Made by a program: the position numbers and the translations under genes. Shown piece after piece: positions 3,106 through 62,870 of a stretch of DNA of 64,000 nucleotides. The stretch comes from Candidatus Bathyarchaeia archaeon (GTDB lineage Archaea > Thermoproteota > Bathyarchaeia > Bathyarchaeales > Bathycorpusculaceae): positions 1-64,000 of the forward strand of contig JBEKOM010000002.1 in assembly GCA_049521795.1 (NCBI GenBank), read 5' to 3'. The first letter of the stretch is position 1; every line of letters starts with the position of its first letter. A model generated the notes under the pieces. The model ran no database searches. It had not been told where the DNA came from and saw only the letters and a list, made by a program, of their open reading frames with translations.

Positions 3106-3473
3106 ATTCAAACGATAGGGCGCGCATGGTTGTTCCCAAATTGGCTAAAAATGGTTTTTATTCTTCTTGTGGAGTTTGGGACATTTTCAGGTATCGTGCA
3201 TGTCCATGCGTTTTATGACAAGTAGCTCTTCTCGAAAGCGTGCGCGTCAATTTCTGCTCACCTTCCAAGCATGCGCGGTTCTCATCGCAGATCTGTGCAT
3301 TATGTCACGGGTGTCTATCCAAGCCCAAACGTTATCGAACAAGTTCATGTCAATTTCCCGAATTTAGCAACACGCTAGCGCGCTTTGTCTAGGCGATTGT
3401 TGCTGTTACTTGTAAAAAGGTAAAAGAATTAGAAAACACTATAATTTGCATCAAACAGCTTGTAAGTGTCAGT

Positions 3474-4058
3474 TTGTTAAGGATCTTCGGTGGTTGGGTT
3501 ATTGGGTTGAATCGGTTTACGTCAAGGGAGAAGATCTTGATAGATGATGCTGGGTGGGGAGACCTTATCTTGGGCGTGGTAATCGGTGCCCTCAAGCCTC
3601 CAGACCGTCGGTACATGGAGCGCAGGATCCCTGTCTCGTCCTTCCAGCCGCCAAACTTTGAGAATAAGAAGTATTTGGATGACGCGGTGAAGATTGCCGA
3701 TGAGATCGTTGAGGTTATGCGGCCTGATGTGGAAACCCAGTTTAAGGTTTGCTCAGGATACGTTCTCTCCAGCGTACGCGGGCGCTTGCGAGACCGAGGG
3801 TTCAAGGTTGAAAAAGTCGAAATCACGGGCGAACTTCAAGAGATGGTTGAAAAAAGCTACATAAGATGGTGTGTCGAAGTGGGGGTGCCAGCGGAAACGC
3901 TGGAGGACAAGAGGCGTTTCTGGACACTTCTGGAATGGGTTAGGGAAAGACCTGAACTCAGAGAAAAACTTGTGAAGACAGGATGGAGAAGCTGGAAAAA
4001 GAAGTGGAGAGAAAAAGCGTTCGAAAAGTCTAAGAAGGAAGTGCGCTCTGTTACTTGA
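3474..4058 (+). CDS. Hypothetical protein with RNase HII-like N-terminal motif
   Basis: 194-aa ORF; ILIDDAGWGDLILGVVIG resembles RNase HII DEAGRG motif; start uncertain. Confidence 0.65.
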   Translation: MLRIFGGWVIGLNRFTSREKILIDDAGWGDLILGVVIGALKPPDRRYMERRIPVSSFQPPNFENKKYLDDAVKIADEIVEVMRPDVETQFKVCSGYVLSSVRGRLRDRGFKVEKVEITGELQEMVEKSYIRWCVEVGVPAETLEDKRRFWTLLEWVRERPELREKLVKTGWRSWKKKWREKAFEKSKKEVRSVT

Positions 4059-4168
4059 TTGCTTTATAAGGAAGTGTGCGCATAGGGCAGTAGCGTTCTG
4101 TTGTTGAAGGACGAGAAGAACACGGCAACTTTGCACGTACCAATGAATAACAAAATGAGTGATGGAAA

Positions 4169-4456
4169 ATGTCGGAAAAATCAGGAATCGTTTTCGTCGG
4201 AAGCAAGACGCCAATGGACTATGTTCTGGCAGTTATCACAAGACTGTCCGCGAGCGATGCCAAGGAAGTAATCTTGAAGGCGCGAGGGCGAGCAATTGCC
4301 ACAGCTGTTGACGTAGCTGAAATAACCAGAAATCGCTTCCTAAAAGACCTGAAAGTAAGCAAAATCTCAATAGGAACAGAGGAGATGCCACCGAGAGAAG
4401 GCGAAAACAGGGCAAGAATGGTTTCAACAGTGGAAATAGCCCTTACAAAAGAGTAG
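4169..4456 (+). CDS. albA: DNA/RNA-binding protein Alba
   Basis: VFVGSKTPMDYVLAV, ILKARGRAIATAVDVAE, VSTVEIAL. Confidence 0.95.
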   Translation: MSEKSGIVFVGSKTPMDYVLAVITRLSASDAKEVILKARGRAIATAVDVAEITRNRFLKDLKVSKISIGTEEMPPREGENRARMVSTVEIALTKE

Positions 4457-4555
4457 GAAAACCTGGCGGAACATGCGTGCCAAGTTAGCAAGGTGGATAG
4501 ACCCTCGTTGAATAACGGTAAGGTATTATTAAGAAACGGGCAACGATGAGAAACA

Positions 4556-5806
4556 GTGAAGCTTGCTGTCCTGGTCTACGAGTATCCCCCAAAGATCGTC
4601 GGTGGCCTGGGAACCTACTCGGCTGAAATAACTCGCCAGTTTGTCCTCATGGACAATGACGTTACAGTTTTCACGATGAATGATGATGCAAGCAGCCTAC
4701 CGACGCGGCAGATTTGGCGAGGTATCGAAATCCACCGGCCGCAACACATCGACATTTCTGACTCGTTGCCCGATGTGGTTGCAGAAGACATAAAGAAATG
4801 GGGTAGTGGGATACAGTGGTTCTCAAAAGTCCTCGTGTACAATTATCTGAGCGCTGCAAAACTCGTAAATGAACTGATAAGAAAAGAAAGCATCAAGTTC
4901 GACCTTATCGTGGCTCATGACTGGCTTTCAGCCATAGGCGGAATGACTGTTAAAAAAGAGGCAGGATTGCCTTTTGCGTTCCACGTTCACTCAACAGAGA
5001 AGGGAAGAACGTTTGGAAAGGGCTCGGTTACGGTGAGCAACATTGAACTCCACGCCGCCAAGGCGGCTGACCTTATCGTGACAGTTTCTTATGCGATGAA
5101 GGATGAGCTGGTAGGCCTAGGATTTCCGAAAGAGAAAATCCAAGTTGCTTACAACGGGGTCGACCCAAAGAAATACGATCCAGCAACGGTGACATCTGAG
5201 CAGATCAAGAAAGTCAGAGCGATGTACGATATCAAAAACGATGACTACATGATTCTTTTCATAGGCAGACTCGTCGGCGTCAAAGGCGTTGACAAGCTTA
5301 TCATGGCGTTGCCCCACGTTCTGCAGAAAAATCCAAAGGCAAAGCTCGTAATTGTGGGTCTAGGCGACTTGCAAGAATACCTGATGAATTTGGTCAAAGC
5401 CACGAAAATGAGCGATTTTGTAAAGTTTCGTTTCGAGTTTATCCCAGAAGAGGAACGTATCCTTCACTACGCAGCCTGCGATGTCGCAGTTTTCCCAAGC
5501 TTCTATGAACCCTTCGGAATAGTGGTTCTGGAGGCAATGAGTATGGGGCGGCCGGTTGTCATCGGTGCAGCTGGCATCAGCGGTATGCGGGAGATAGTCG
5601 TGTATCGCGGCGAGGAACAGTGCGGTTATCACGTAGATCCAAGCGACCCATCAGACATAGCTTGGGGCATAAACTGCGTCTTGGAAAACGATGAGAAAAG
5701 AAAGTGGCTGGGCAAAAACGGCAGAAAGCGAGTTCTGAACGAGTTCACTTGGGAAAACATAGCTGAAAAAACACTGGGGCTTTATGAACACATCATCAAA
5801 CGCTAA
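4556..5806 (+). CDS. GT4 family glycosyltransferase (glycogen synthase-like)
   Basis: EYPPKIVGGLG, AHDWL, HSTE, FIGRLVGVKG, YEPFGIVVLEAM. Confidence 0.92.
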   Translation: MKLAVLVYEYPPKIVGGLGTYSAEITRQFVLMDNDVTVFTMNDDASSLPTRQIWRGIEIHRPQHIDISDSLPDVVAEDIKKWGSGIQWFSKVLVYNYLSAAKLVNELIRKESIKFDLIVAHDWLSAIGGMTVKKEAGLPFAFHVHSTEKGRTFGKGSVTVSNIELHAAKAADLIVTVSYAMKDELVGLGFPKEKIQVAYNGVDPKKYDPATVTSEQIKKVRAMYDIKNDDYMILFIGRLVGVKGVDKLIMALPHVLQKNPKAKLVIVGLGDLQEYLMNLVKATKMSDFVKFRFEFIPEEERILHYAACDVAVFPSFYEPFGIVVLEAMSMGRPVVIGAAGISGMREIVVYRGEEQCGYHVDPSDPSDIAWGINCVLENDEKRKWLGKNGRKRVLNEFTWENIAEKTLGLYEHIIKR

Positions 5807-5892
5807 GCTTAGCGCGCGCGCTACGGGTTCAAGTCCCAACCAAAACCGAAATAGGGTGGAGCCGCTCGGCCCCGAACCAAAATGCGCGCGCG

Positions 5893-6102
5893 AAGCAAGT
5901 TCCGATTGCCTCTCCAAGGGAGGTTGCCTTAGGATATGTTATTGGCTTCTTAGAGGCGTATTCTTTTGGAATAATCTCTTCCGCGGAAAAGAGACCTCTT
6001 ACAGAACACGAACAAACAATGGAAAGCAACCAACTTCGAGGGACGATAAAGAGAAGACTGCCTGAAATTCTGGCAAACATTGTAACAATATTTGGCAAAT
6101 AA
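5893..6102 (+). pseudogene. Start-less 3' gene fragment (hypothetical protein tail)
   Basis: KQVPIASPREVALGYVIGFLEAYSFG...IKRRLPEILANIVTIFGK* begins right after the CG run 5884-5892; no in-frame start nearby. Confidence 0.55.
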
Positions 6103-6169
6103 ATCTGTAAAACTAAGCTTGTGCGCGCGCGCTAAAGTGTTTGTATAACGGACAGTCACGAAGCCGCCC

Positions 6170-6288
6170 GGACTTAGACCCAAATAGGTTCGAGTCCACT
6201 GCTTCAAACATCCTGTAACCAGCATTCTCTTTGTCTTAGGCCAACTGGTTCAGAGCTGCCCGTCCCCATACCCAAATGGGTTCAGAAC
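6170..6288. repeat. Pair of ~28-bp imperfect palindromes (T-arm-like family)
   Basis: GGACTTAGACCCAAATAGGTTCGAGTCC (6170-6197) and CCCCATACCCAAATGGGTTCAGAAC (6264-6288); inverted homologs of copies at 9611, 11746 and 11839. Confidence 0.7.
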
Positions 6289-6339
6289 CTATTTGTAAAA
6301 CGGCGATCGATCGGCGCGCGCTAGAACTATAAGCCTACT

Positions 6340-6936
6340 TTAAATGGCGTTCTTATATCCTTTCGCCACCAACCTTTTGTGGATGGAGTTCTTCAAAGCG
6401 CCCAGTCCTGCTCCTGTCTTTGCACTCACTGGGAATACGTGCTCTCCAACAGCAAATGGATAACCTTTGCCTATTTGATTTATGAACGCTTCACGGTTGA
6501 CCTTTAACTCCTCCTTATTCACCTTATCTATCTTGTTAGCCGCCACCAAAGGAAACTCACCTGAAGTCTCCGTCAAAAACTGAACCATTTCCACGTCCAC
6601 TGAGATAAAACCCTTCTTCTCCAAACGCCACGTTACCTCCGAGAACGTGGATATGTCTAAAACATGGACGGCCAAAGCTATGTTCTGAGCATAGGACTCC
6701 AGAAACTTGATGATCTGATCATTTTTCTTATCCTCCAAACGTTTGGAAGCTCTCATCATCCTACCAAACCCTGGCATATCTACAAGCACTAAATCGCCAC
6801 TCAAGGGATATTTTGATATCCGTCGCGTAGTTCCTGGTCGTTTACCGATTGCCACATCCAAGCCTATGACTTCTCTGATGATGCTACTCTTGCCCGCATT
6901 AGGCCTTCCAGTGAAAACCAAATACCTCTCACGCAT
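6340..6936 (-). CDS. engB: GTP-binding protein EngB/YihA family
   Basis: G1 GRPNAGKS, G2 RPGTT, G3 DMPGFG, G4 NKID, G5 SAK. Confidence 0.9.
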   Translation of the reverse strand: MRERYLVFTGRPNAGKSSIIREVIGLDVAIGKRPGTTRRISKYPLSGDLVLVDMPGFGRMMRASKRLEDKKNDQIIKFLESYAQNIALAVHVLDISTFSEVTWRLEKKGFISVDVEMVQFLTETSGEFPLVAANKIDKVNKEELKVNREAFINQIGKGYPFAVGEHVFPVSAKTGAGLGALKNSIHKRLVAKGYKNAI

Positions 6937-7166
6937 ACTGAATATTACATAAGACGCAGTATACTTGAATGTATCCTAGCCCACAATTTCCGAGTTACAA
7001 AAACTACGGCAAACAGTTTGGTCTTTCTTTAACACAGCTCCATCTCAAGGTCTTTAATGAACGCTATGCGGTCTTTTCTTGGAATACTTGCCCCCTAGTT
7101 TTTTTCCGAGCTTCAAAGAGTCTCCGTGCCGAAGTTTAAACCGCCGCAGAGCGCGCGCGAGACAGG

Positions 7167-7244
7167 TCATCTCTTTCTGCAGACAAACAGTATTTTTCCA
7201 CTTTCTTCTCTCAGATTGGCTTCAAGGATCTCGAAATGTTCAGA
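7167..7244 (-). pseudogene. C-terminal fragment resembling a class I SAM methyltransferase tail
   Basis: SEHFEILEANLREESGKILFVCRKR* starts immediately at the CG run 7245-7254 and stops just before the run 7151-7159. Confidence 0.4.
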
Positions 7245-7781
7245 GCGCGCGCGCCCGCTATTTGGCGGGGTTTTCTCCCGTATTCCCGATCGACATAGAT
7301 ATCTCCAGTTAGAAACGTGGTCACGATTGATCAAAAGGGCTGATAGAAGGTTCTTCTATATGGTTATTAATACAACAAAAATAACTGCGCCAATCATACA
7401 AATCATAAAAAAGTCCATAGACTCAGGGCCGCAAACAATCCCACCAATCTTCAAGCCGCATTTTCCTACTTCTTTTTATCAACTATTTTTTTTCCCTCTT
7501 TTTAGAGTGTCTTCGATGGACCTTTCGGGAATTTCTATTACTTCGCCTATATGTCATCTAATTCACTTTCTTTGTTTTGGTTTTTCGTTGCGAAACATGA
7601 ACATTTATTGTAGCGGTTTCTCATAAGACTTAGCTGGTGAAAGTCGAAATAATCATGGCGCCTATGATGATAATCACGTCAGTATGAAGGGATTTAAGTT
7701 TGGTCCTTTTTTCCCAAGATGATTTGACATTAAGTTGATTCTGAGGCGCCACAACACCATCTTCCAAAGTAGGCTCACAAT

Positions 7782-7899
7782 GAGCTTGTAGAGCAATTGA
7801 AAGAAGAGAAAAAACTCGGTGAAGGAATAAAGAGAAATTTGGAGAGTATTGGATATGGCGTCTGAGGAAGAGCCGCAGTCCAAGCAAAACGCGCGCTAG
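7782..7899 (+). pseudogene. Type I R-M hsdM 3' end overlapping a truncated hsdS start
   Basis: ELVEQLKEEKKLGEGIKRNLESIGYGV* (stop 7863-7865) resembles HsdM C-termini; overlapping ATG 7855 gives MASEEEPQSKQN, ended by CGCGCGCTAG. Confidence 0.55.
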
Positions 7900-8065
7900 A
7901 AGATGGATTAATTTATGGATATCATGATGACCATTTGACTAGGCTTCAAGCGATACTTCTATTACAGAAGTTGAATAAGTTCGGTCTAGTTGAAGGATTC
8001 AAGAGAACTCAAAGTCATTTTGGAAAATCAACCATTAAGTTTGTAGAATAAGAAGGTGAGAAAAG

Positions 8066-8203
8066 ATGAGTGAGAGAAGATACAACAGAAGTAAAAACTA
8101 CAGATGTCCATCATGTAGTCTAGAGTTCAAGAGTGAGGGAGTACCTAAACACTGTCCACGATGTCACTCTGTAATTGAGATTAAAGAAAATAATAGGAGA
8201 TGA
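8066..8203 (+). CDS. 45-aa CxxC...CxxC zinc-ribbon microprotein
   Basis: MSERRYNRSKNYRCPSCSLEFKSEGVPKHCPRCHSVIEIKENNRR; SD AGGTGA upstream; below the ORF-track cutoff. Confidence 0.7.
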   Translation: MSERRYNRSKNYRCPSCSLEFKSEGVPKHCPRCHSVIEIKENNRR

Positions 8204-8215
8204 CAGCGCGCGCAC

Positions 8216-8371
8216 TCAAGAGCGAGCTCTGGCCTCGTATGTTATCTCCATCATAGATTGCTTGTCAGGATGACGAACAAATATAACGGAACAAACGCTG
8301 TTTTCGCAGTAGTACTTAGCATCGCCCGTGTTCTTTTTCAATGGTTTGTCACATTCTGGACAACTAACCAT
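8216..8371 (-). CDS. 51-aa zinc-finger microprotein, paralog of 10648-10887
   Basis: MVSCPECDKPLKKNTGDAKYYCENSVCSVIFVRHP...; GAGGGAG upstream; shares SCPxCxxPL-YxCENxxCxVxFVRxP with 10648-10887. Confidence 0.75.
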   Translation of the reverse strand: MVSCPECDKPLKKNTGDAKYYCENSVCSVIFVRHPDKQSMMEITYEARARS

Positions 8372-8686
8372 CTTCAAACTCCCTCTTGGATAACTAAAGA
8401 AGATGATGTAAAAATGTTATGAATCTCGGATAGTGACGGGAACTCTTTCTAGTGCGCGCGCTAACACTTTTATTTAGGAACCCTTCAGTCTTGGAAGGGT
8501 TTCCATAGGTTCAATCCAACAAATGCAACTGGAGCCTGTCAGTTTGCTACAGGGTTGAATCGTTGGAAGCCCGTCTCTTTCCTTTTGAGGAAACGTGCAG
8601 TAGTAAAGTTTGCGTGCGCTGCTTAAGATTCTTGATGTTACAAAAACTATTAAAACATATTTGGCTTAATCTGGAATGGGGAGATT

Positions 8687-9106
8687 TTGATTCCTAAGAG
8701 AAACATCGCTTTGGTAGCGCATGACAATAAGAAAGATGATTTAGTGGAGTGGGCTCTTTTCAATAAAGGAACCTTGACTCTTCACAACTTGTACGCAACG
8801 GGAGATACTGGAAAGAGAATAATGGAGAAAACTAATCTAAGGGTCACTTTGCTTAAAGCGGGGTCTTATGGTGGAGACATGGAGATTGGCGCTTTGATTG
8901 CTAATGAGAAATTGGACTACCTGATTTTCTTCTGGGACCCTTTGCAATCTCTTCCTCACGACGTCGACGTTAAAGCGCTTCTTAGGATAGCTGTCTTGTA
9001 TAATGTGCCGACTGCTTGTAACAGGGCTACAGCGGATCTAATAATTTCCAGTCCATTGTTTCACAGTGCAGAATACGACTCGGCAAAGAAACGAACCAAA
9101 AAATGA
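8687..9106 (+). CDS. mgsA: Methylglyoxal synthase
   Basis: IALVAHDNKK, ATGDTG, GGDMEIGA, FFWDPL, PHDVDVKALLR, ACNRATAD. Confidence 0.95.
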   Translation: MIPKRNIALVAHDNKKDDLVEWALFNKGTLTLHNLYATGDTGKRIMEKTNLRVTLLKAGSYGGDMEIGALIANEKLDYLIFFWDPLQSLPHDVDVKALLRIAVLYNVPTACNRATADLIISSPLFHSAEYDSAKKRTKK

Positions 9107-9114
9107 CAGTGTGT

Positions 9115-9506
9115 GTTTGGGGGGTAGTTTTATCCCAAAGACAATTATTTCTTACCTTTCAAATGTTTTGCAGGAAGCGAAACCTGCTTTTTCTGTTTTC
9201 TTTTAAGTTCTTTCTCTCGTTGCGATTTCTTATGTTGCTCTAAACCTGCAGCTTTCTTTTCTCTTCTTGACAAAACCTCATCAACCTTAATTGGCAATAG
9301 AAGCGTTACGCATTCTAAAGCGTTGTCCTTTTGTCTGTACCACAAGGACGTATACTCGATTAGCGCGCGCTCTGTGTGTGTTATATGTACTTGTTATGTG
9401 TGCTTGTTGTGTGTGAAGAGAGTAAGTAAGTATAGTAGAGTAAATTAGAGTGTCGTAGTCGTAGAGTTTGGGTTTGGGTTTGGGGGGTAAAGTTTTATCC
9501 CAGACA
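9115..9506. repeat. ~29-bp hairpin-forming direct repeat, two copies (partial third at 12477)
   Basis: GTTTGGGGGGTAGTTTTATCCCAAAGACA (9115-9142), GTTTGGGGGGTAAAGTTTTATCCCAGACA (9478-9506), GGTAAAGTCTTATCCCGCACAC (12477-12498). Confidence 0.7.
9145..9273 (-). CDS. 42-aa Lys/Arg-rich microprotein
   Basis: TTG start after GATGAGG; MSRREKKAAGLEQHKKSQREKELKRKQKKQVSLPAKHLKGKK. Confidence 0.5.
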   Translation of the reverse strand: MSRREKKAAGLEQHKKSQREKELKRKQKKQVSLPAKHLKGKK

Positions 9507-9610
9507 CTAGACCCTTGACTCAACCATTTCCATGACTTCCAAGTGTCTTGAGTTCTCGAGTTGGACTATCTGCTTAGCGCGCGCCGCCTAGTTTTGATCG
9601 CGCGGTTGCT

Positions 9611-9640
9611 GGACTTGAACCCGTTTGGGTTCTAATCCCT
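9611..9640. repeat. T-arm-like palindrome copy
   Basis: GGACTTGAACCCGTTTGGGTTCTAATCCCT, near-identical to 11747-11776. Confidence 0.75.
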
Positions 9641-9869
9641 AGAGGCCAATCCCTGAAACGGTGCGAATCCTCATAGTTCTGCTTTTATTTCGCATGCGCG
9701 AAATGTCGCGCGCGCGAGCGCTATGTTGAGATGACAGAAATCTTAAGTCTGCACGTTCATATTTTGATTTGGATGTAATAGCGGTTTATCGCCACGGCGG
9801 GCGTGCTCTTTCTCCGCGCGCGCCTCTTTTAAGGGTTCATGATATTTCTACATGTTCCTTTCTGTTACG

Positions 9870-10010
9870 TTAGCGCGCGCGGTTGGTGCGATTCTCAACG
9901 ACGTCCTGACGGTAAAAGTAGCGTTGTTTACCATTCCATGGCGGAGACTCAGCGATAAAAAGAACACTCACTTCATCTGGTTTCCACGTTTTCTCAACAT
10001 CAAACCTCAC
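9870..10010 (-). pseudogene. 5' fragment of a uracil-DNA glycosylase-like superfamily gene
   Basis: WKPDEVSVLFIAESPPWNGKQRYFY motif, then the frame is terminated by CGCGCGCGCTAA at 9870-9881. Confidence 0.6.
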
Positions 10011-10269
10011 GTAAGCTTTCTCAGAAGCGTTAAGCCTATCGGAACTTGCCAGACCCTCATCTATGCAGCGCGCGCGAGATGTCTCCATTGGGCTGGATTC
10101 AATTCCCAGCGACCATATTAAAACCCATGTCTGCTTGTAGTCCTAGACGAAAAAGCACGGGTCATGCGAAAGCGGGCGCTACCATCCCGCTAGCTGGCAA
10201 TTTCTTGAAAGGACGCAGGGTTACATAAGGGATAAATTGGACCACGATTCTGAATAGTTCGGAAGAAGC

Positions 10270-10476
10270 TTGAGTTTGTGGGAAATTGAAGACTTCCGCA
10301 AATTGCCAGGAGCTTGTCCAGAGTGCAAATCTACTGAAGGTTTTTGGTTCATCGCAAAGCGCGAATCGACCTTTCTTCAATGCAAGCACTGCGCCACCAT
10401 TTTGGAAGCATGCAAGGTCTTCGCCAACCTAAAAGAACCAAAACATTTTAAGTTAGTGATAAAACTGCACAGATAA
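10270..10476 (+). CDS. Small zinc-ribbon protein
   Basis: CPECKS...QCKHC in 68 aa. Confidence 0.6.
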   Translation: MSLWEIEDFRKLPGACPECKSTEGFWFIAKRESTFLQCKHCATILEACKVFANLKEPKHFKLVIKLHR

Positions 10477-10647
10477 CTAGCGCAGTCCAAGTTGTTGTAT
10501 CTAAGGTCTATAATGACTACGTGATTCTTTTGGTGAAGTAACTAATAGCGCGCTTCTCGTTCGACCGAGCAAGCCAGTATTTGGAAAGATGCGGCTATAC
10601 TTCTTATGGGCTTCATGAGGTGACTTTCGCGCGGGTTATGAATGGAA

Positions 10648-10887
10648 TCATTGCACATACGAAAGTTGGGTTGAGCGATGACAAGAGATCTCATGGGCGT
10701 TTGCTTTTTCGACTCTTCTGATCGTCGCTTCTTTCACAGTGGATGCAAAGTATACTTTTCTTTTGAAGGGGTTAGCAGGGTAGCGCACGAATACGACTGG
10801 ACATCCTTCATTCTCACAGGAGTACCTATCCTTGCCAGCATCTTCGGCCAATGGTCTTCCGCAATAAGGACAGCTCGCTGTCATCAA
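10648..10887 (-). CDS. Small zinc-finger protein, paralog of 8216-8371
   Basis: SCPYCGRPLAEDAGKDRYSCENEGCPVVFVRYP. Confidence 0.7.
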   Translation of the reverse strand: MMTASCPYCGRPLAEDAGKDRYSCENEGCPVVFVRYPANPFKRKVYFASTVKEATIRRVEKANAHEISCHRSTQLSYVQ

Positions 10888-11436
10888 ATAACCGAATGTA
10901 TAAATCCTCTAGTTTATTCTTATAGATTCTTGTTCCATCAAGAATATTCCGTTTTTCGATATGTCCTGAACAGGAACCAAAGTTCATTCGCTTAGAATGT
11001 AGATATTGTGAACTTGGCAACTCATGTTTCCTCCGAAAACTTGAAAAGAAGAAAGCGGACAATTAAGCTGATCTGCTTAAATGTCTCTCAGAAAACTCAA
11101 ACTCGATTTCTTTGAAATACGCTCAGCGCGCGCTTTCGTCAGATACCTGAATTGATCCCTCGGGCGCGCGCTAATCCGTTTAACTAGCTGGTTAAATTTC
11201 GGCTTCTGTCATGTTATTACTCGCACGGTCAAAAAGGCGAAGCTACTCGCTGTTTCGGGAGAAATGCAGCTCGCACGTCCATTGTTTCCTTCAGAGGCGT
11301 TGTATCCCAAAAATAGAAGTTCTTAAGGTAATCGTTTTGAATGTAGAATGGTCTGTGTGGGCTGCGGCAAAAATTTTATATATAGAAGTCTCCGAAGTTA
11401 CTTGTAGATAAAAAGAGCCAGAATTTTGGGAGAACT

Positions 11437-11730
11437 ATGTCAATTCCACCTGAGATCGCTTGGCTAATTCCAGTTGTCCTGCCATTCATCATAGGCTTGC
11501 TGGTAGGCGCTATAGTCAAGAAAGGTTTGAAACTTCTGGTAGCTGTTGTCGCACTCATCATAGTCCTCGTCGCGACCGGGATCCTGAGCTTGACTTTCAC
11601 CAGCCTTTTCGATCAGGCCATGAAGTTTTTGCCCAAGCTCTACGATGTCGGAAGCGGATGGCTCAACGTCTTACCTTATTCTTCCGTTGCATTCCTGATC
11701 GGCCTCGCGCTAGGATTTCTGTTTGCCTGA
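11437..11730 (+). CDS. Small membrane protein (about 3 TM helices)
   Basis: 97-aa hydrophobic ORF; GGGAG upstream; CG run 5 nt after the stop. Confidence 0.8.
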   Translation: MSIPPEIAWLIPVVLPFIIGLLVGAIVKKGLKLLVAVVALIIVLVATGILSLTFTSLFDQAMKFLPKLYDVGSGWLNVLPYSSVAFLIGLALGFLFA

Positions 11731-11742
11731 AGTAGCGCGCGC

Positions 11743-11865
11743 GTTGGGACTTGAACCCGTTTGGGCTCGAATCCCTCCGGATTCGCTCTGTGCCAACTGC
11801 TAGAAAAATGCAAGATCCTACTTTCAGTTTTCAAGTAAGTTCTGAACCCTTTTGGGTACGGGTCC
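11743..11865. repeat. Pair of T-arm-like palindromes between two CG runs
   Basis: GGGACTTGAACCCGTTTGGGCTCGAATCCC (11746-11775) and GTTCTGAACCCTTTTGGGTACGGGTCC (11839-11865); 11743-11760 is the exact reverse complement of 5823-5840. Confidence 0.75.
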
Positions 11866-12051
11866 AGGTGGAATAGGAGCGCGCGCTAGCAACGCGCGTT
11901 GGATTCTCTTCGGGCAATTCTCTTTCACGTAGCGTTCTCCACATAGCGGATTTCTTTTTCTGCACCATTGCGTCCGCGCGCGCTTTTTTGGCGGTCCGCG
12001 CAACAGATATTAGCGACGTTTTGCACAGGCTACTCTATTCTGAGGGTCTTG

Positions 12052-12414
12052 ATGGAGAAGATCATAGCCCACTGTGGAATTACGTGTTCTGATTGCCCAA
12101 CCTTCATAGCGACGAAGACGAATGATGACGCTGAAAGAAGAAGAGTGGCAGAGCTGTGGACAAAACAGTACGGTCACCCATTTAAGCCAGGAGACATCAA
12201 CTGCGACGGTTGCCAGACAAAAGGAACACGCGTCTTCAACTACACTAAAATATGCGAGATCAGAAAATGCGGACAAGAGAGAAACACAGAGAATTGCGCC
12301 TACTGTGACGAGTACAAGTGCGAAAAGATCTCCAAACTCCACGAACAGGCGCCAAAACCAAAAGAAACGCTCGACCAACTAAGAAAAACCTTAGGCAAAG
12401 ACACCAAACATTAA
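12052..12414 (+). CDS. DUF3795-like Cys-rich protein
   Basis: IAHCGITCSDC, INCDGC, CEIRKC, NCAYCDEYKC pattern; ATG at 12052. Confidence 0.85.
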   Translation: MEKIIAHCGITCSDCPTFIATKTNDDAERRRVAELWTKQYGHPFKPGDINCDGCQTKGTRVFNYTKICEIRKCGQERNTENCAYCDEYKCEKISKLHEQAPKPKETLDQLRKTLGKDTKH

Positions 12415-12653
12415 GCACGTGCGCTTCCTCGCATATCAATCAGCTTGATTTGGGCTAAGTTTGTCCCAAACCCAATGGTAAAGTCTTATCCCGCACACAC
12501 GGAGTGAGTGTGAAGAGCAAGCTGTTTGAAGTTCAAGCCGTTTTCAGCGTTTTTGCAACCAAGCAGTTCCGTAGGCATCAATTCTTCGCCAACAGATTTC
12601 GGCCGGCACTTCATGATTTGTTACCACACAACATTACCACTGACATTACTTAC

Positions 12654-12696
12654 AAAAAACGGGGGAGTCAACCCTGAAAGGATACCCGTCTCTCCC
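12654..12696 (-). terminator. Possible hairpin plus U-tract terminator downstream of the LysE gene
   Basis: Minus strand GGGAGAGACGGG...ACTCCCCCGTTTTTT. Confidence 0.3.
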
Positions 12697-12853
12697 GAAC
12701 CGCAAGCTCTTTCGACATCAATCGTGTTTCTACACGTTGCTGTTCTTCGGTGCATTAGCTTCCCTGACACTGCTGAACGCGTGTTTGAGGCTGTCCCTAC
12801 GCCGGACTCGTCGGGAGGCAGTGCAGTTGCTGGGGCTTCGAATGGAACGCGCG

Positions 12854-13477
12854 CTATATTGAGCTGAGAGTGAAAGTGAGCCCAAAGTACATCAAAACCC
12901 CTCCAAACGTTGCAGTGAGGAGTCTGTACCATTTCAGTCCCACAGAGTTCAGTCCCACCTTCGCGAAGTGCGCGGTGGCCGTGAGCCAAACATAGTCCAT
13001 CCACACATGGCACAAGTACATCAAGGCGACGCCGGCGAATGAGGCGAATTCAAGGGCTATGATGATTAGTTCAGCCCCCGCGGTGAGCCACCAAACGATG
13101 AAGAAGGGGTTCAAACCCGTCAGTGCAAGGCCCAGTAGAAAAAGCCCGCGGGAACCAACCTTGACCTGTTTGGCCTCTCCAAACTTGGACACGAGAGAGC
13201 CACGAATCTGCAGCGCGCCGAACCCGACAAGAACGACTCCTCCGACCACTCCGACGATGCGTTTCACAGCCAGCTCGTGTGCAAACGTCAACAATCCAAG
13301 AGCCAAGAACATGACGAGCGCGAACTCAACTAGAGTGTGCGCCAAAGAGAAAACCAACCCGCTTCTCGCTCCAGACTTTGCGCCCTGAGATAGGTTTTCA
13401 AAGAACAGAGGGCCTGGAGCGAGCGCAGCAGAACCCGTCACGAGAATAACCGTGACGACGAAACTGAATATGTCCAT
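12854..13477 (-). CDS. LysE family translocator
   Basis: ALAPGPL, LAHTLVE, GLNPFFIVWW; multiple TM helices; stop TAG runs into CGCGCG. Confidence 0.9.
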   Translation of the reverse strand: MDIFSFVVTVILVTGSAALAPGPLFFENLSQGAKSGARSGLVFSLAHTLVEFALVMFLALGLLTFAHELAVKRIVGVVGGVVLVGFGALQIRGSLVSKFGEAKQVKVGSRGLFLLGLALTGLNPFFIVWWLTAGAELIIIALEFASFAGVALMYLCHVWMDYVWLTATAHFAKVGLNSVGLKWYRLLTATFGGVLMYFGLTFTLSSI

Positions 13478-13544
13478 AACGGTAAGGAACGGCAGAATGA
13501 AGATAATAACATTCTGCAATTCTCCCTCCGCGCGCAACTAAAAG

Positions 13545-14582
13545 CTAGGGTCGATTTGATCCAGCGTTTCTAACCGCGTTCACGGTTCTTCTCAAGAGGA
13601 GCTCTGCCGCTTCTTGCGTTGGCCAACCGCCCAACCCGCAGTCTGGGCCTGTGAAGGCCATTCGCTCTCCGTATTTCTCTTTCGCGGCCCTGAACCTCTT
13701 GCGTATGGTTGACTCGTCCTCAGCGATTTCTTCAATGCGTGGCTTCGAAATGCCTCTTTCGTAAAGCTCTGCCATGATCGAATCTATGTCTGTTCTGGAC
13801 ACACCGACTCGTACCTGCTTGTCTGCCTGCTCGAGCATCCGCTTGGATAATCCTTCAATGTTCTTTGGGGAAGCTGCGTACTCGAACGACAGCACATCGA
13901 CGTTCTTAACCTCCAGCACGTCGGTTATCCGTGACGGAGAGTGAAGGTGGATCTGTCTCACCGCGCCGCTAAAGTCGAAGGCCTTCTCAAGAACGTCCAT
14001 GACTGTTTCTCTTTCTGCCGAGATTTCCCTGAAACCGAAACTCGGCTCGTCCAAGGAAACTACGGCAGTTTTGACGTACTCTGAGTTCAGAATGGAGTTT
14101 TTTGCGAAGCGCCTAACGTTTTCTGCGAACATCATGAGAACATCCTTGTAGGCCACAGTTCCGACTTCTCTGAGATAGAGGTCCATTGGACCTAGTATGC
14201 AGACACGGAGCTGCACCCTCTTTCTAAATTCCTCATACAACCTCTTTGCTTCCTCCTTGATCACGCACACTTCAGGCAAGAATGCTTGATTTTCATCGAT
14301 CAGGTACGTGCCCTTGTCCATCACTTCCTTAAGCACGTCCGCAAGCTGCCTGTGCATGTCGTAGTGCTGCGGATAGTTGACGATGTCAAGGCCGGTTTCA
14401 ACCTTCCTCCTAAAGGAATCCACTATCACTTGGTAGAAATTCTTCAGCAAGAATTCGTCGCTTGTTAGCCCTCTTCTGCTTGTCAGTGCCTTTCTTGCAA
14501 GAACGTATGCCCTATCAAACGACTCCCGGTCCGTCTGAGGCGGCAGAGGAAAACTTCCAACGTCGTCAATGAGTGTGCTCAT
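13545..14582 (-). CDS. Cobalamin-independent methionine synthase (MetE catalytic domain)-like protein
   Basis: DDVGSFP, SLDEPS, QIHLH, GPDCGLGGW. Confidence 0.8.
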   Translation of the reverse strand: MSTLIDDVGSFPLPPQTDRESFDRAYVLARKALTSRRGLTSDEFLLKNFYQVIVDSFRRKVETGLDIVNYPQHYDMHRQLADVLKEVMDKGTYLIDENQAFLPEVCVIKEEAKRLYEEFRKRVQLRVCILGPMDLYLREVGTVAYKDVLMMFAENVRRFAKNSILNSEYVKTAVVSLDEPSFGFREISAERETVMDVLEKAFDFSGAVRQIHLHSPSRITDVLEVKNVDVLSFEYAASPKNIEGLSKRMLEQADKQVRVGVSRTDIDSIMAELYERGISKPRIEEIAEDESTIRKRFRAAKEKYGERMAFTGPDCGLGGWPTQEAAELLLRRTVNAVRNAGSNRP

Positions 14583-14683
14583 GCGTACAAGTCTGGTCGA
14601 AACCGAATTTAAGGCTGTCTTCATCCTGCATTTGTTGGAAGATGCTGCACTACCTTTTCTTGCATAAGAACCGTTCTTACGTG

Positions 14684-15538
14684 CTAGTTTCTTGCGAACG
14701 GTCGAGTAACATCTTCGAGTCTTTCGCCCAAGACTTGAATGTCATCAATGTTGCCTAGTCCTCTCTCGTAAGCCTTCCGAACATGACTGACCTCGTGGGG
14801 GTCAAACCCCATGATTCTGCATGCAGTCGAGTCCGTAGCAACAGGGTCGGTTCCTGCTATTATCAGGTCCATCTGGACGGGTGTTCCGCCGACGGGGCCA
14901 CGTCCTTCCATCGCTACGAAGCCGTCTATCACCGTTAATGTTGGTTTGAGTACAGTGTTGATGTCAGCGATAACCGTGCTTATGCCCCTCAGATGATATT
15001 TTGATTTGAGCTTATCCGGCAGAAGACCGAACATGTTCTTCATGCCCAACGTGACTCCTGTTGACATGTGAGTCTTAAGCTTAGCAGCACTAATAATGGC
15101 AGACTCGGTAACGATGCGAGGCACAGTGATGCTCTTCAATGCTTCCCCATGAGGAATATCAACCTTAACCCTGTCTTTCACGTGTCTCAGGTTAAGGCAC
15201 TGAACGCCGTTGCGCTCGCTCATCTCTCTCATGCCCGTGACCTCAAAGGCCTTATCAGCGTTGGTCATCGTCGCGTCTGACTCGACAACGTAGATCTCAA
15301 CAGGCAAGTTCTTGAGCCTCTTTATGATCGCTTCAACCACTATTGGATCCGTGGTCGCGCCGGTTTCCCATGTTGCTACAGTTATAAAGTTGACTTTTAT
15401 GAGCACCTTATGCCAACCTGATAGGGCAGTCTCATAATCCACCAGGTCAAGAGCTCTCAAAACGGGGTCTTGTCCTCTTTGGCCTCTAACAACAGCCACT
15501 TTTGAAGTCAAACGGACGACACTCTCGAGAATCAGCAC
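14684..15538 (-). CDS. DUF362 domain protein
   Basis: VLIKVN, TTDP, KLKTH, TLGMKNMFG, DGFVAMEGRGP, DPVATD. Confidence 0.9.
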   Translation of the reverse strand: MLILESVVRLTSKVAVVRGQRGQDPVLRALDLVDYETALSGWHKVLIKVNFITVATWETGATTDPIVVEAIIKRLKNLPVEIYVVESDATMTNADKAFEVTGMREMSERNGVQCLNLRHVKDRVKVDIPHGEALKSITVPRIVTESAIISAAKLKTHMSTGVTLGMKNMFGLLPDKLKSKYHLRGISTVIADINTVLKPTLTVIDGFVAMEGRGPVGGTPVQMDLIIAGTDPVATDSTACRIMGFDPHEVSHVRKAYERGLGNIDDIQVLGERLEDVTRPFARN

Positions 15539-15766
15539 CCTTGATGAAATTTAAGCATTGTCCAAAAAGAACCTCAGAAGATGCACAGTGCGACGTTGCA
15601 GAAAGTGACCAAGGTTCAAGCGCCTGCGTGACGCATTCAGACATAGTCAAAAGGCTAAGGGCACTGAAAGAACTAAGCTAGAAACTGGCCTTTTACTCAA
15701 ACTTGCTACGGTTAAGGAGCGGAACCGTTAAAGATTAAGGGCCAAGAATATCTAAGCTCGTTAGAT

Positions 15767-17005: not shown

Positions 17006-17058
17006 GTAGAGCGCAGCTATTTTCCAAGACCTGAACGACGAAGTTTGGGGTCGTGCTA

Positions 17059-17259
17059 GCGTGTTCCTGAATTCTTTTAGGAAGTAGCTTACTGCTCATT
17101 TTGCTGTTCAGTCATATTTGGGTCATATAGTGAACCCGGGGGGGAGGGTGTGAGCACGCAAGCACCCAGTCCGAACCGTGACAGTAACCATCGACCATCG
17201 GAAAACCCCATGCCTGCCTCTTGAGCTGAATCTAGGAATTTAGGAACAAGCATGCGCGC
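17059..17259. mobile_element. ~200-bp dispersed element with terminal inverted repeats (MITE-like or structured ncRNA), copy 1
   Basis: Alignable end to end with 56765-56959; ends TGTTCCTGAATTC / GAATCTAGGAA...; right end abuts GCGCGCTAA. Confidence 0.65.
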
Positions 17260-17351
17260 TAAATCTTCCAGCAATCGTTCGCAAGCTTTGAGAGGAAAAG
17301 TACTTAAATAATGTCGGCACGAAACTAGATTCCTCGAATCGAGGCTGTCTT

Positions 17352-56676: not shown

Positions 56677-56764
56677 AGAGTTCGAGGTCGCTGAACTTCC
56701 GTCCTCAAATGCCTTCTAAGCGTCAGCGGAGGCCATGCTGATATCTTTGCGGATTAGCGCGCAG

Positions 56765-56959
56765 GCGTGTTCCTGAATTCTTTCGGGAGGCAGCTTGTGC
56801 TGCTCATCTGCTCTTCAACCATATTTGGATCATATAGGATACCCGGGGGGGAGGGCGTGAGAGCAAGAAAGCACCCAGCTTGAACCGTAAACAGTAACCA
56901 TCGTCCATCGGAAAACGCCACACCAGCCTCTTCAACGGAATCTAGGAACAAACATGCGC
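56765..56959. mobile_element. ~200-bp dispersed element with terminal inverted repeats, copy 2
   Basis: Homolog of 17059-17259, same orientation; ends TGTTCCTGAATTC / GAATCTAGGAACA; left end abuts TTAGCGCGC. Confidence 0.65.
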
Positions 56960-57308
56960 CTTACCCAGAACCCTTTTTGGAAACTCATCTGACAAAGGTT
57001 GATAGTTAAAATCCTCTTGCAACAAGTTACCAGAATCAAAAATCGCAATCACCACAGGGCCCATTCTTAATAGCGTTCTCCCGTCACTCTTCTTTGAGTT
57101 GTCTCTTCTTGTACTTCGTGTATCTTCTTTGATAAGGCATCTCAGCTTTCACGAGAAGAAAAATCGAAACTGTGCATCACCCGCTATGCAACACGAAGAA
57201 CCATCACCCTAAGATGAACCAGAACCTAGAAGAGAACTATAGAAGAAAATAATATCCTACTTTAAGTTGTGCTTTTTCATTATTATTACTGGGAGGAGGC
57301 TTCACATT

Positions 57309-57578
57309 TTGGCAACCAAGAGTCCTAGACATCGCACCTTTCTGGAGATTATCGCATCCATTTTGGATGCTTGCCAGCACGGAACTAGAAAAACCCGCGT
57401 GATGTACCAATGCAAAATGAGTTCCAAGCAGTTTACTGGCTACTTGGATTTATTGTTGGAAGCAAATCTTCTCCTAATCGATAATGACCGTCGATGTTTC
57501 CTGTTCAGAGTTTCAAGCAAAGGCAAAGACTTTCTGAAAGCATATAACGGTATGAAAACTCTGGTGGAATTGTCTTAA
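57309..57578 (+). CDS. Winged-helix transcription regulator (HTH_45-like)
   Basis: RTFLEIIASIL, KTRVMY, YLDLL, SSKGKDFL; GGAGG before TTG. Confidence 0.85.
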   Translation: MATKSPRHRTFLEIIASILDACQHGTRKTRVMYQCKMSSKQFTGYLDLLLEANLLLIDNDRRCFLFRVSSKGKDFLKAYNGMKTLVELS

Positions 57579-57775
57579 GTCGAATCCGCTTCCTATAGAA
57601 ACTCGGTCAAAAAACCTAGCAGAAACTGCATTAAGGCCCGCTTTTAGGAGTTATCAACCGAAAAGTAACAGTCTTAGAGAAGTGGCGCATCAACCGAAGA
57701 AGTAACAGAACCCCTTTGCGACACCTTTATTTATTGGTTCTGAGAAACGAAGTCTCCAGCCGTGTGGTGAAGTCC

Positions 57776-58223: not shown

Positions 58224-58739
58224 GCTTCTTGTTGACTTCTTATGCTTTTCTGGGTGATTCTCGTTCATTTTGGTTTCCTCAAGAATATCAAGTTATCCTT
58301 TCAGCAAACGTATTCAAAGCCCGCCTCAGGCGATTCCTTTGACTCTACTCCTGTTTCGCCTGCCTTACCAGTCAAGTTATCACTTCTAGATCCAAATGAT
58401 GTTCTACCCATGTCTACGTGGTCTCCTGCTTTGAACACCGTATTCCAGAGAAGTCTTTGACTTCTTGAAGGTGCTTCATTTGATAATAATATGGTCTCGC
58501 TTTCAAATATCGCAGAAGCGCGTTGCCCTGTCCCTTTGTTGTGCGTGCGCACTTGAAACAGCCCACACAGCTCCGCATCTAACTTGAACGCCTCACCGTT
58601 TTCAACGATGCTCGTTAAGTGTATAGACAAAACGTATAAGCAAAATGTATAAGCTTTGAAATTATTTTTTTGGCAAATTTTGGACCAAGCCAGCGCGGCT
58701 AAGATAGGCTCAAATTCGGGTTAATGTGCATGTCCAGGC

Positions 58740-62321: not shown

Positions 62322-62870
62322 TCACTCCAACAGCTTTGCCATCGCTATCTCGTCTATGTACTTCCCTTCCCTGAAATGCTTTTTCGGAACCCGACCAGTC
62401 TGCACAAATCCAACTTTCTCGTAAACATGAATCGCGCGCTTATTGGTCGCAAAGACAGAGAGTACCAAAACCTTCAAACCGATCCTTTGGGCTTCCTTCA
62501 CTACAACCCGCATGACCCGGGTTCCAATGCCCAAATCCCTAAAACCGCCTTTGACAGCTATGCCAACTGCACCGGCACGCTTCTCGGAACCTTTACCTAC
62601 GTGGAGGTCAGAAGACGCAACAACCTTTCCATCCACCTCTCCAACCAAGAAAAAGATCTGGCCTTTTTCCAGACGAAGAAGCACGTCAGAAAGCCACTCA
62701 GCCTCTTGCTCCCTCGACAGCTTCTCGTCCACAATTACCTCAGCCTTCTCCTCCACAAGCAAATTTATGAACTCCAACAAGTCGTCCAAGTCTTCCCACT
62801 TTGGAGTTCTCAAGACAACCCTGCGCCCGTCTTTAATAGAGAAAGCCTCGAGGATTTTGCCTGACTTCAT
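62322..62870 (-). CDS. GNAT family N-acetyltransferase
   Basis: FRDLGIG, LSVFATNKRAIHVYEKVGF. Confidence 0.9.
   Translation of the reverse strand: MKSGKILEAFSIKDGRRVVLRTPKWEDLDDLLEFINLLVEEKAEVIVDEKLSREQEAEWLSDVLLRLEKGQIFFLVGEVDGKVVASSDLHVGKGSEKRAGAVGIAVKGGFRDLGIGTRVMRVVVKEAQRIGLKVLVLSVFATNKRAIHVYEKVGFVQTGRVPKKHFREGKYIDEIAMAKLLE

Follow-up and report, generated by a model that had tools for sequence, protein, structure and literature searches.

Short DNA segments bounded by alternating CG runs in a Bathyarchaeia genome: candidate scars of IS1182/IS5-like elements and their miniature derivatives

The first 64,000 nucleotides of contig JBEKOM010000002.1 from a Candidatus Bathyarchaeia archaeon (assembly GCA_049521795.1), hereafter the window, contain an island of approximately 7 kb (positions 5812-12854) in which short pieces of DNA are separated by runs of alternating C and G. 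The island begins just after a gene for a GT4 glycosyltransferase (4556-5806, plus strand) and ends at a gene for a LysE-type translocator. It holds 19 runs of 8-10 nt and two 7-mers (7890-7896 and 12848-12854), the same tally as in an earlier sequence-only reading, which had proposed that the runs mark an undescribed DNA-capture or rearrangement system; a further 7-mer at 13529-13535 lies slightly beyond the range covered by that reading (5807-12860). The rest of the window contains a single run of at least 8 nt (893-902) and two 7-mers (1598-1605 and 62433-62439), in keeping with the near-absence that the earlier reading claimed for 13.6-64 kb. CGCGCGCG occurs 14 times in the window, against an expectation of 1.01 from 100 dinucleotide-preserving shuffles, none of which reached 14. 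The account we lean toward, tentatively, is that the (CG)4-5 runs are scars left by IS1182/IS5-like DDE insertion sequences (IS) and by two families, A and B, of miniature transposable elements with inverted repeats (MITEs). The island is most likely a patchwork of mobile-element debris and not an integron. Below, G000 is the genome of the window, G001-G009 and so on are its relatives, C is a contig, L a fetched locus, and X1-X3 are public sequencing runs.

The first run (5812-5821, 10 nt) starts 5 nt after the GT4 stop codon, and homology to both orthologues and paralogues of GT4 stops there. The gene is one of three GT4 paralogues that are 81-86% identical (window 4045-5817, C4:122161-123908, and C1:395729-397057), and it resembles the other two less than it resembles the G001 gene (92.6% over 1291 nt). 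A 9-mer (5884-5892) and a 10-mer (6123-6132) follow, and then a copy of a hairpin repeat (6164-6292) that resembles a tRNA T-arm but is not a tRNA. The repeat consists of a 12-bp imperfect stem like a T-arm plus its complement with a 4-nt loop, receives no ARAGORN or Rfam call, and has 90-95% identical copies in several genus genomes. In G000 it is found at window positions 6164-6292, 9599-9645, 11744-11781, and 11836-11860, as well as at C9:3794-3881, C3:176746-176833, and C3:183077-183159. The 8-mer at 6314-6321 forms the left edge of a segment (6322-7150, minus strand) whose 198-aa GTPase gene (6340-6936) is intact; in G001 and G002, no run occupies this exact point. The right edge is the 9-mer at 7151-7159 in G000, G001, and G002 alike, with three differing neighbors beyond it.

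The 10-mer at 7245-7254 closes a repeat at 7174-7244, and a 200-nt repeat at 7614-7813 has 92-97% identical copies in five genus genomes. At the 7-mer 7890-7896, a community contig with a different left neighbor joins the sequence, and the 8-mer at 8206-8213, which lies between two convergent small zinc-ribbon open reading frames (ORFs), has alternative neighbors in X1 and X3. The 8-mer at 8454-8461 joins two repeats that are 3 kb apart in a second island, on contig C9. A 144-nt repeat (8455-8598) is present in many genus genomes; in X1, its contig depths sum to roughly 10 times the local baseline. Beyond a gene for a 139-aa protein with an MGS-like domain (8687-9106, plus strand), a repeat at 9114-9361 ends at the 8-mer 9363-9370, which has a breakpoint on either side; in G009 this repeat is collinear with 7614-7813, at a spacing of 528 nt instead of 1301. 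After another 8-mer (9577-9584) comes a 2.1-kb block with seven runs (9636-11780) that is 97.0% identical to the small contig G002:C25, where five of the runs are intact. Among the seven, the 10-mer at 9707-9716 and the 9-mers at 9815-9823 and 9873-9881 are intact in G002:C25, and the 9-mer at 10068-10076 differs there by one substitution.

Two 8-mers 30 nt apart (11126-11133 and 11164-11171) precede a gene for a 97-aa membrane protein with a weak FUN14 match (11437-11730, plus strand), and 4 nt after its stop codon is the 9-mer 11735-11743, where G001 homology stops. An 8-mer at 11879-11886 is followed by the 9-mer 11975-11983, where homology to G002:C34 begins, and by a DUF3795 gene (12052-12414, plus strand). 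The LysE-type gene (12854-13537, minus strand) lies between two CGCGCGC 7-mers. The one at 12848-12854 overlaps its stop codon and is the left edge of the LysE segment; the one at 13529-13535 is the right edge and lies 10 nt after the stop codon of the next gene. LysE has no close homologue in 10 genus genomes, the sole genus match being 66% identical. Genes in the island lie on both strands, and GC content across the region is 0.41-0.49 at the 1-kb scale.

Stop codons do sit a few bases from a run at 5806, 8203, 8216, 11730, and 12854, as had been noted from the sequence. An NTAG before or a CTAN after the run accompanies 11 of the 22 runs of the island region, which matches the earlier count of about half with a polar flank, but the polarity does not carry over to the genome, where the flanks form a weak palindrome (see below). 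The claim that four gene fragments are cut exactly at a run found no support: Pfam searches of 10 further island ORFs gave nothing convincing, and tblastn of 115 island ORFs against the genome returned only repeat copies and paralogues. Genes clearly cut at runs are known elsewhere in G000, namely the transposase remnants at C13:17092-17723 and C4:135192-135805. ARAGORN finds no tRNA in the island, and Rfam finds nothing at gathering thresholds, nor at E up to 0.1 for 5700-13000.

When we searched the genus with window positions 3400-15600, each inter-run piece matched scattered loci in the relatives, at differing identities. The GT4 gene is 88-93% identical to its relatives, and the GTPase segment through its right-hand run (6322-7159) is 96.7% identical in G001 and 97.6% in G002, in surroundings that differ. 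Ordinary flanking alignments of at least 500 nt give a background identity for G001 with a median of 91.4% and a maximum of 94.4 (30 alignments); for G002, the median is 90.8% and the 95th percentile 94.4 (50 alignments). Because the GTPase segment and the 9636-11780 block exceed this background, some island pieces were probably exchanged recently between species. Ten of the 33 distinct end-points of homology between the island and its relatives fall on a run; when the run positions are shifted circularly, the mean is 1.4, and a value of 10 was reached in 6 of 5000 shifts. The other 23 are mostly at edges of other repeats. Across G000, 51 of 2456 self-alignment end-points lie within a run, and three shifted controls gave 18, 7, and 10. 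The C9 island has four segments in common with the window island, differing in order and orientation and with runs at their edges.

Another kind of element end recurs in this region, comprising G/T-rich TTTGGG units and then a conserved 17-nt word (window 9114-9140, 9478-9507, and 12455-12500; L020 2590-2630). Homology to relatives often starts or stops at such an end rather than at a CG run. A small contig also carries a tandem array of units of about 20 nt (C31:14-380).

Logan contigs from four public runs of four studies (peat and soil metagenomes) map to the stretch. Error-free contigs from X1, which may be the source sample of the genome, span the runs at 5812-6123, 6314-7245, 9707-11164, 11735-11975, and 12848-13529; X2 contigs span 5812-6123, 9707-10068, 11126-11164, and 11735-11879, and X3 contigs span 9815-9873, 11735-11975, and 12848. 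In X1, the GTPase, the 9.9-11.0 kb block, and LysE have a summed depth of 24-25; the stretch at 7.3-8.6 kb reaches 84-279 and that at 9.4-9.66 kb reaches 209, so these last two pieces appear to be multi-copy in the community. Loose contig ends with alternative neighbors occur at runs 7890, 8206-8213, and 8454 (5 of the 24 listed, of 191). The same runs are present in independently assembled genomes of the genus, of which G001 is closed.

The runs are not peculiar to the window. G000 (2,439,145 bases in 69 contigs, GC 48.6%) contains 389 CG runs of at least 8 nt, about 12 times expectation, and GCGCGCGC is found 417 times (overlapping count) versus about 35 expected under order-1 or order-3 Markov models. 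This exact 8-mer is the commonest form, accounting for 191 of the 389 runs. The sequence-only reading had allowed that its proposal would suffer if the motif were equally frequent in all intergenic DNA. The motif does occur genome-wide, but it is strongly clustered, with 143 of the 389 runs in 22 islands, of which the window island is the largest (19 runs) and many lie at contig ends. Flanks are symmetric genome-wide, with A at -1 (57-62%) and T at -2 (34-38%), giving the weak palindrome wA-GCGCGCGC-Tw; there is no conservation further than 2 nt from the run on either side and no T enrichment within the 12 nt after it. Using gene positions from a crude purpose-written gene caller (2274 genes, 81% coding), we place 60 of the 389 runs fully and 68 at least partly in predicted coding DNA, leaving approximately 83% outside predicted genes. 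A run lies within 20 nt after the stop codon of 64 genes and within 20 nt before the start of 14.

Intergenic runs of 4 to 13 nt number 1550, 475, 232, 125, 184, 92, 50, 1, 1, and 1, respectively, a distribution with a second mode at 8-10 nt and an abrupt stop beyond. We also clustered the flanks of all runs of at least 6 nt. The sole large cluster (30 flanks) represents the inverted repeats of mobile elements, 27 of them on 6-mers. Among longer runs, 5 of 438 flanks of 8-mers, 5 of 214 of 9-mers, and 1 of 112 of 10-mers fall in any cluster; because nearly all the flanks are unique, the 8-10-nt runs appear to be solo sites. Sixty pairs of runs lie no more than 160 nt apart, and the fragments they enclose are unrelated and unique. 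The motif is also lineage-specific: GCGCGCGC occurs 29-464 times per genome in all 10 other genus genomes (359 in G009, 254 in G008, and 128 in G005), 0-14 times in eight other genera of the family, and 0-6 times in twelve genomes of the same order, with one exception at 53. In the parts of the literature that our search returned, we found no description of this motif or of IS and MITEs of Bathyarchaeia.

Mobile elements ending in the same sequence are present in the genus. G000 contains two MITE families, A (about 180 nt) and B (about 210 nt), whose inverted repeats consist of GCGCGC, three variable bases, and C-K-TGTYCC; a family-A copy lies in the window outside the island, at 58518-58702. 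An IS of about 1.1 kb in G004 (L030) has 23-nt arms, CG run included, that are 91% complementary and 1079 nt apart, and it encodes a 331-aa PF01609 transposase. An IS in G007 (L035) carries the family-A inverted repeat at both ends and encodes a 348-aa transposase, 43% identical to that of G004. The best models for the two transposases are IS1182 (166.4 and 81.9 bits; cut-off 270) and then IS5_4 (121.4 and 62.5 bits; cut-off 140). Full-length PF01609 DDE transposase ORFs are found in G004, G007, G009, and G001, and G000 has two remnants. Neither pairing of inverted-repeat cores nor inspection of multi-copy ORFs in G000 yielded a transposase of an autonomous IS, and no members of the DDE_3 and TnpB families were found there.

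In G000, 37 strict inverted-repeat matches lie next to a run, of which 19 abut exactly GCGCGC, 7 abut GCGCG+T, and 2 an 8-mer. Because the GCGCG+T variant is common to many copies, it appears to be heritable with the element. The same pattern has 72 matches in G001 and 112 in G002. The preference for TA, AA, or CA before the run is identical for solo runs and for runs beside inverted repeats. Regarding the MITEs themselves, family A contains three tandem copies of a 9-nt word about 12 nt apart (C2:171675-171857 and about 25 other places), and an internal CG run is seen in many of its members, about 12 nt inside one inverted repeat; the family looks as if it had been derived from the IS by a run-marked internal deletion. 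A further family-B-like MITE lies at window positions 3120-3383, between a gene ending at 3105 and a gene starting at 3474.

Elements of this kind are present at some orthologous sites and absent from others. We obtained six clean occupied/empty pairs, a seventh (L042) being too scrambled to read; among 30 family-B loci, four were inspected by hand (L069, L070, L072, and L073), and one of these four gave a clean empty site. Three empty sites carry a run-like residue, two of them of exactly 8 nt, and three have no run. In pair a, the family-A MITE at C4:123908-124079 is opposed by CGCGC in G001, CGCG in G009, and GCG in G002. In pair b, a MITE in G002 (L044) corresponds to exactly 8 nt in G000, GCGCGGGC at C1:641522, and in pair c, a family-B MITE that lies in the window outside the island (17052-17261) and is also present in G001 corresponds to GCGCACGC in G002. 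Both 8-nt residues are one substitution from a perfect run. The other three empty sites lie in G000: pair d matches a MITE in G002 (L054) to C4:19201, pair e matches a MITE in G001 (L073) to C2:286244, with the boundary exactly outside the left hexamer, and pair f matches a MITE in G002:C34 to window positions 14624-14673, with a diverged spacer. Pairs d-f, which lack a run when empty, indicate that the hexamers come in together with the element. Pairs b and c allow two readings: the 8 nt may be a target that was duplicated over 4 bp (or 2 bp), or what remained once an element was lost. The site downstream of GT4 exists in three states: a family-A MITE beside the C4 paralogue, the 10-nt run in the window, and a residue of 3-5 nt in G001, G009, and G002. 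For the two full-length IS, no collinear flanks representing empty sites were found.

Runs also occur at deletion joints inside element remnants. Relative to the intact G007 element (L035), the IS remnant at C13:17092-17723 has undergone three deletions, and every joint bears a run. A 10-mer stands in for the left 65 nt and CGCGCGCG for 445 internal nucleotides, and the right inverted repeat lacks its 11-nt core and bears a 10-mer instead of a 6-mer. Neither breakpoint of the internal deletion coincides with a CG run in the intact element. In the remnant at C4:135192-135805, the opening 19 codons of one IS type are connected through GCGCGCGC to the final 150 or so codons of the other. Copies of the hairpin repeat at C3:183074-183168 and C9:3880 are cut at runs where other copies continue, and in G001 a run-cut fragment of an IS left end directly adjoins the GTPase segment.

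Three gene-sized units are present or absent between runs. The flanks of the LysE segment (12855-13528) hold a family-A MITE in G002, and G001 has GCGCGC on one flank only. A 580-nt piece with a small gene (C4:120733-121312), bounded by a 7-mer and a 9-mer, corresponds to a single 8-mer in G001, and a 1154-nt piece of G001 with a gene for 242 aa, bounded by an 8-mer and a 9-mer, corresponds to a single 7-mer at C5:68574 in G000. More generally, 7 of 19 collinear indels of at least 20 nt have a run of at least 6 nt within 12 nt of a boundary, compared with approximately 16% expected, in a sample that is biased because many loci were fetched for their MITEs. There are counter-examples: replacements of 1660 nt and of 1032 nt, the latter at window positions 56684-57715 relative to G002, lack run bounds. 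Together, the 10 of 33 breakpoints on runs, the three run-bounded indels, and the joints within remnants bear out the suggestion that the run is a junction or scar and not only a terminator.

The sequence-only reading had offered three origins for such junctions: a recombinase core site, the footprint of a mobile element, and a repair signature. The second is the best fit of the three, given that IS and MITEs of the genus end in GCGCGC. In the model we tentatively favor, the terminal inverted repeats of the elements end in the palindromic hexamer GCGCGC, and on loss of an element, a few bases from the tip of each end would remain and join into an alternating CG run of 6-10 nt. The transposase might excise the element by staggered cuts, or the two terminal GCGCGC copies, being direct repeats as well, might be joined through microhomology. 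If neighboring copies recombined and the survivor was later lost, the intervening DNA would be deleted or reshuffled and a run left at each joint. On this view, elements would have inserted time and again between GT4 and the gene after LysE, and the resulting island would be a mixture of debris, small genes, and other repeats in which an old scar marks the borders of each piece. A second length mode at 8-10 nt and a sharp stop are expected under this model because two short ends are joined. If the hexamers are element ends and the solo runs are remnants of lost elements, one agent explains most of the data: the length mode, the shared flank preference, the empty sites without a run, the three states of the GT4 site, the deletion joints, and the indels.

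Several observations weigh against the scar model. No full-length element is assembled in G000, and the transposases of the relatives score below the NCBIfam curated cut-offs for IS1182 and IS5. The run-rich genomes G009, G008, and G005 give only 1, 2, and 2 matches to the inverted-repeat pattern, although this profile is weak evidence either way because the one IS observed in G009 departs from the pattern at two places. No target-site duplication is definable, as 2 bp, 4 bp, or none each fits some pairs, and the two 8-nt empty sites and the GT4 site are one event simpler if the run is a target. Two or three steps are required to place a scar at a deletion joint. Seven of 15 interior run sites are intact in both compared genomes at approximately 88-97% identity, so many runs are old or are conserved for some reason. 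In addition, the parts of the literature returned by our search held no description of uniform IS footprints in prokaryotes.

The strongest competitor, possible though on present evidence rather unlikely, is that the run is a pre-existing, genus-specific intergenic palindrome, similar to the repetitive extragenic palindromes (REPs), that IS and MITEs use as a preferred target; bacterial REPs reportedly serve as IS targets. Here, insertion into the middle of an 8-mer with a 2-4-bp staggered cut would leave a 6-mer on each side, and breaks at runs would give the rearrangements. This would explain why the empty sites of pairs b and c have exactly 8 nt and the occupied ones 6+6 nt, and the C4 MITE fits a 5-nt target with a 4-bp duplication and no change of length. 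The varying run lengths beside full-length IS (7+7, 7+6, and 8), the 7 of 15 sites intact across species, the abundance of the motif where inverted-repeat matches are few, and the bias of runs toward gene ends (64 genes after the stop versus 14 before the start) point the same way. There is also precedent in the IS1182 family, as IS1272 and TnSha1 are reported to insert into hairpins and palindromes (PMC4923244; PMC5678879). A target does not, however, explain the three empty sites that lack a run though GCGCGC stands on both sides of the occupied site, or the variant of the sixth base (C/T) common to many element copies. Neither does it explain the origin of the runs and their 10-nt limit, or the runs at deletion joints inside IS remnants, and no T-tract or conserved flank points to a terminator or to a protein site longer than 10-12 bp.

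A second alternative is shuffling by cutting and ligation, in which a nuclease, either the transposase itself or a restriction-type enzyme, cuts runs or element ends to leave self-complementary overhangs (GCGC or CGCG). Such ends could then be ligated in any pairing, so that segments would be moved, inverted, deleted, or captured, and each joint would restore a run. The four segments reordered and reoriented between the window and C9 islands fit such a process, as do the 60 close run pairs around unrelated unique fragments, the three gene indels, the chimeric IS remnant joined via a run, and the community contigs with alternative neighbors at runs 7890, 8206, and 8454. Nevertheless, we consider it improbable, since runs also occur at joints where the intact sequence offers no run to cut, 23 of 33 island breakpoints are not at runs, and no nuclease was identified; C5 methyltransferases (PF00145), the one methylase class searched for, are present in only 2 of 11 genus genomes and do not follow the motif. 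The broader notion that GCGC-type ends left by this transposase or another nuclease serve as universal sticky ends, giving the genus a natural means of shuffling and capturing DNA, genes included, at (CG)4-5 joints that would differ from both integrons and composite transposons, is likewise improbable.

An integron-like array, or another assembly of cassettes by a site-specific recombinase with the run as its core site, was the leading suggestion of the sequence-only reading and now appears very improbable. Gene-sized units bounded by runs, with a run beside the stop codon, would suit it, and G000 has ten Phage_integrase (PF00589) genes for tyrosine recombinases. But these lie on contigs C1, C4, C6, C7, and C8 and none on C2; the flanks of the run are unique, with no conserved arms; there is no attC-like structure; and island genes face both ways. 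Nor do integrase counts follow motif counts across 31 genomes, with 11 integrases and 14 motifs in G012 and 8 integrases and no motif in G020. That the runs are assembly or adapter artefacts is scarcely conceivable, for although many islands lie at contig ends, contigs from four studies map to the stretch, X1, X2, and X3 bridge many of the joints, and identical runs recur in independent assemblies of the genus, one of them closed.

Two further candidates were considered and rejected. An intrinsic terminator is not indicated, as T is not enriched in the 12 nt after the run and the run alone cannot form a looped hairpin. A GCGCGC-type restriction-modification site was set aside on the PF00145 count given above, which covers that methylase class. 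As separate observations, one C5 cytosine methyltransferase domain in G000 lies within a 683-aa open frame (C6:18719-19702), and integrase numbers comparable to the ten of G000 are found in many relatives regardless of their CG-run count.

The finding is real and more general than the window showed. It concerns the biology of IS and MITEs in an uncultured archaeal genus and poses a mechanistic question that is testable. If the runs are scars, several hundred insertions and losses of a single transposon lineage can still be read from the genomes of this genus. That would be rare in prokaryotes, where lost IS usually leave nothing, and it would allow the rates at which transposons are gained, are lost, and mediate deletions to be measured in uncultured archaea. 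If the run is instead a host motif, it would be an archaeal equivalent of the REP sequences, with an IS devoted to it. Under either reading, the runs predict differences in gene order and content among close Bathyarchaeia and explain why their assemblies break at such islands.

Compared with known systems, the elements resemble the IS1182 (IS1272, TnSha1) and IS5 groups and their MITEs in having a PF01609 DDE transposase of about 330-350 aa, a length of about 1.1 kb, terminal inverted repeats, and multi-copy, non-autonomous miniature derivatives with the same inverted repeats, and in being present or absent at orthologous sites. IS1272 and TnSha1 are reported to share the association with palindromes and the lack of a clear target duplication (PMC4923244; PMC5678879), whereas the targets of IS1272 have no primary-sequence consensus. 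The elements studied here differ from IS1182 and IS5 in their transposase scores below the NCBIfam cut-offs, their fixed palindromic GCGCGC ends, their archaeal host, and the hundreds of solo (CG)4-5 runs in the genome.

REPs and bacterial interspersed mosaic elements (BIMEs) are stem-loop units of 20-40 nt associated with a Y1 transposase (RAYT). Like them, the run is a high-copy, lineage-specific, intergenic palindrome, often downstream of genes and visited by IS, but it is archaeal, only 8-10 nt long, and has no loop and no longer palindromic unit. Integron cassette arrays, archaeal ones included, consist of small gene units, each followed by a recombination-prone site. The island is similar in its small gene-sized units, each with a short site after it, and dissimilar in lacking an attC structure and an adjacent integrase and in having mixed orientations and many non-coding units. 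As with a DNA uptake sequence, the run is lineage-specific and over-represented, but only 60-68 of 389 copies lie in predicted coding DNA. A parallel to the proposed scars comes from eukaryotes. To our knowledge, a genome-wide, uniform palindromic footprint of 8-10 bp has not been described in a prokaryote; in eukaryotes, internally deleted copies of cut-and-paste transposons give rise to MITEs, and excision of Tc1/mariner and hAT elements leaves a few terminal bases of each end at the donor site, just as the runs of this genus would be terminal bases left behind by departed elements.

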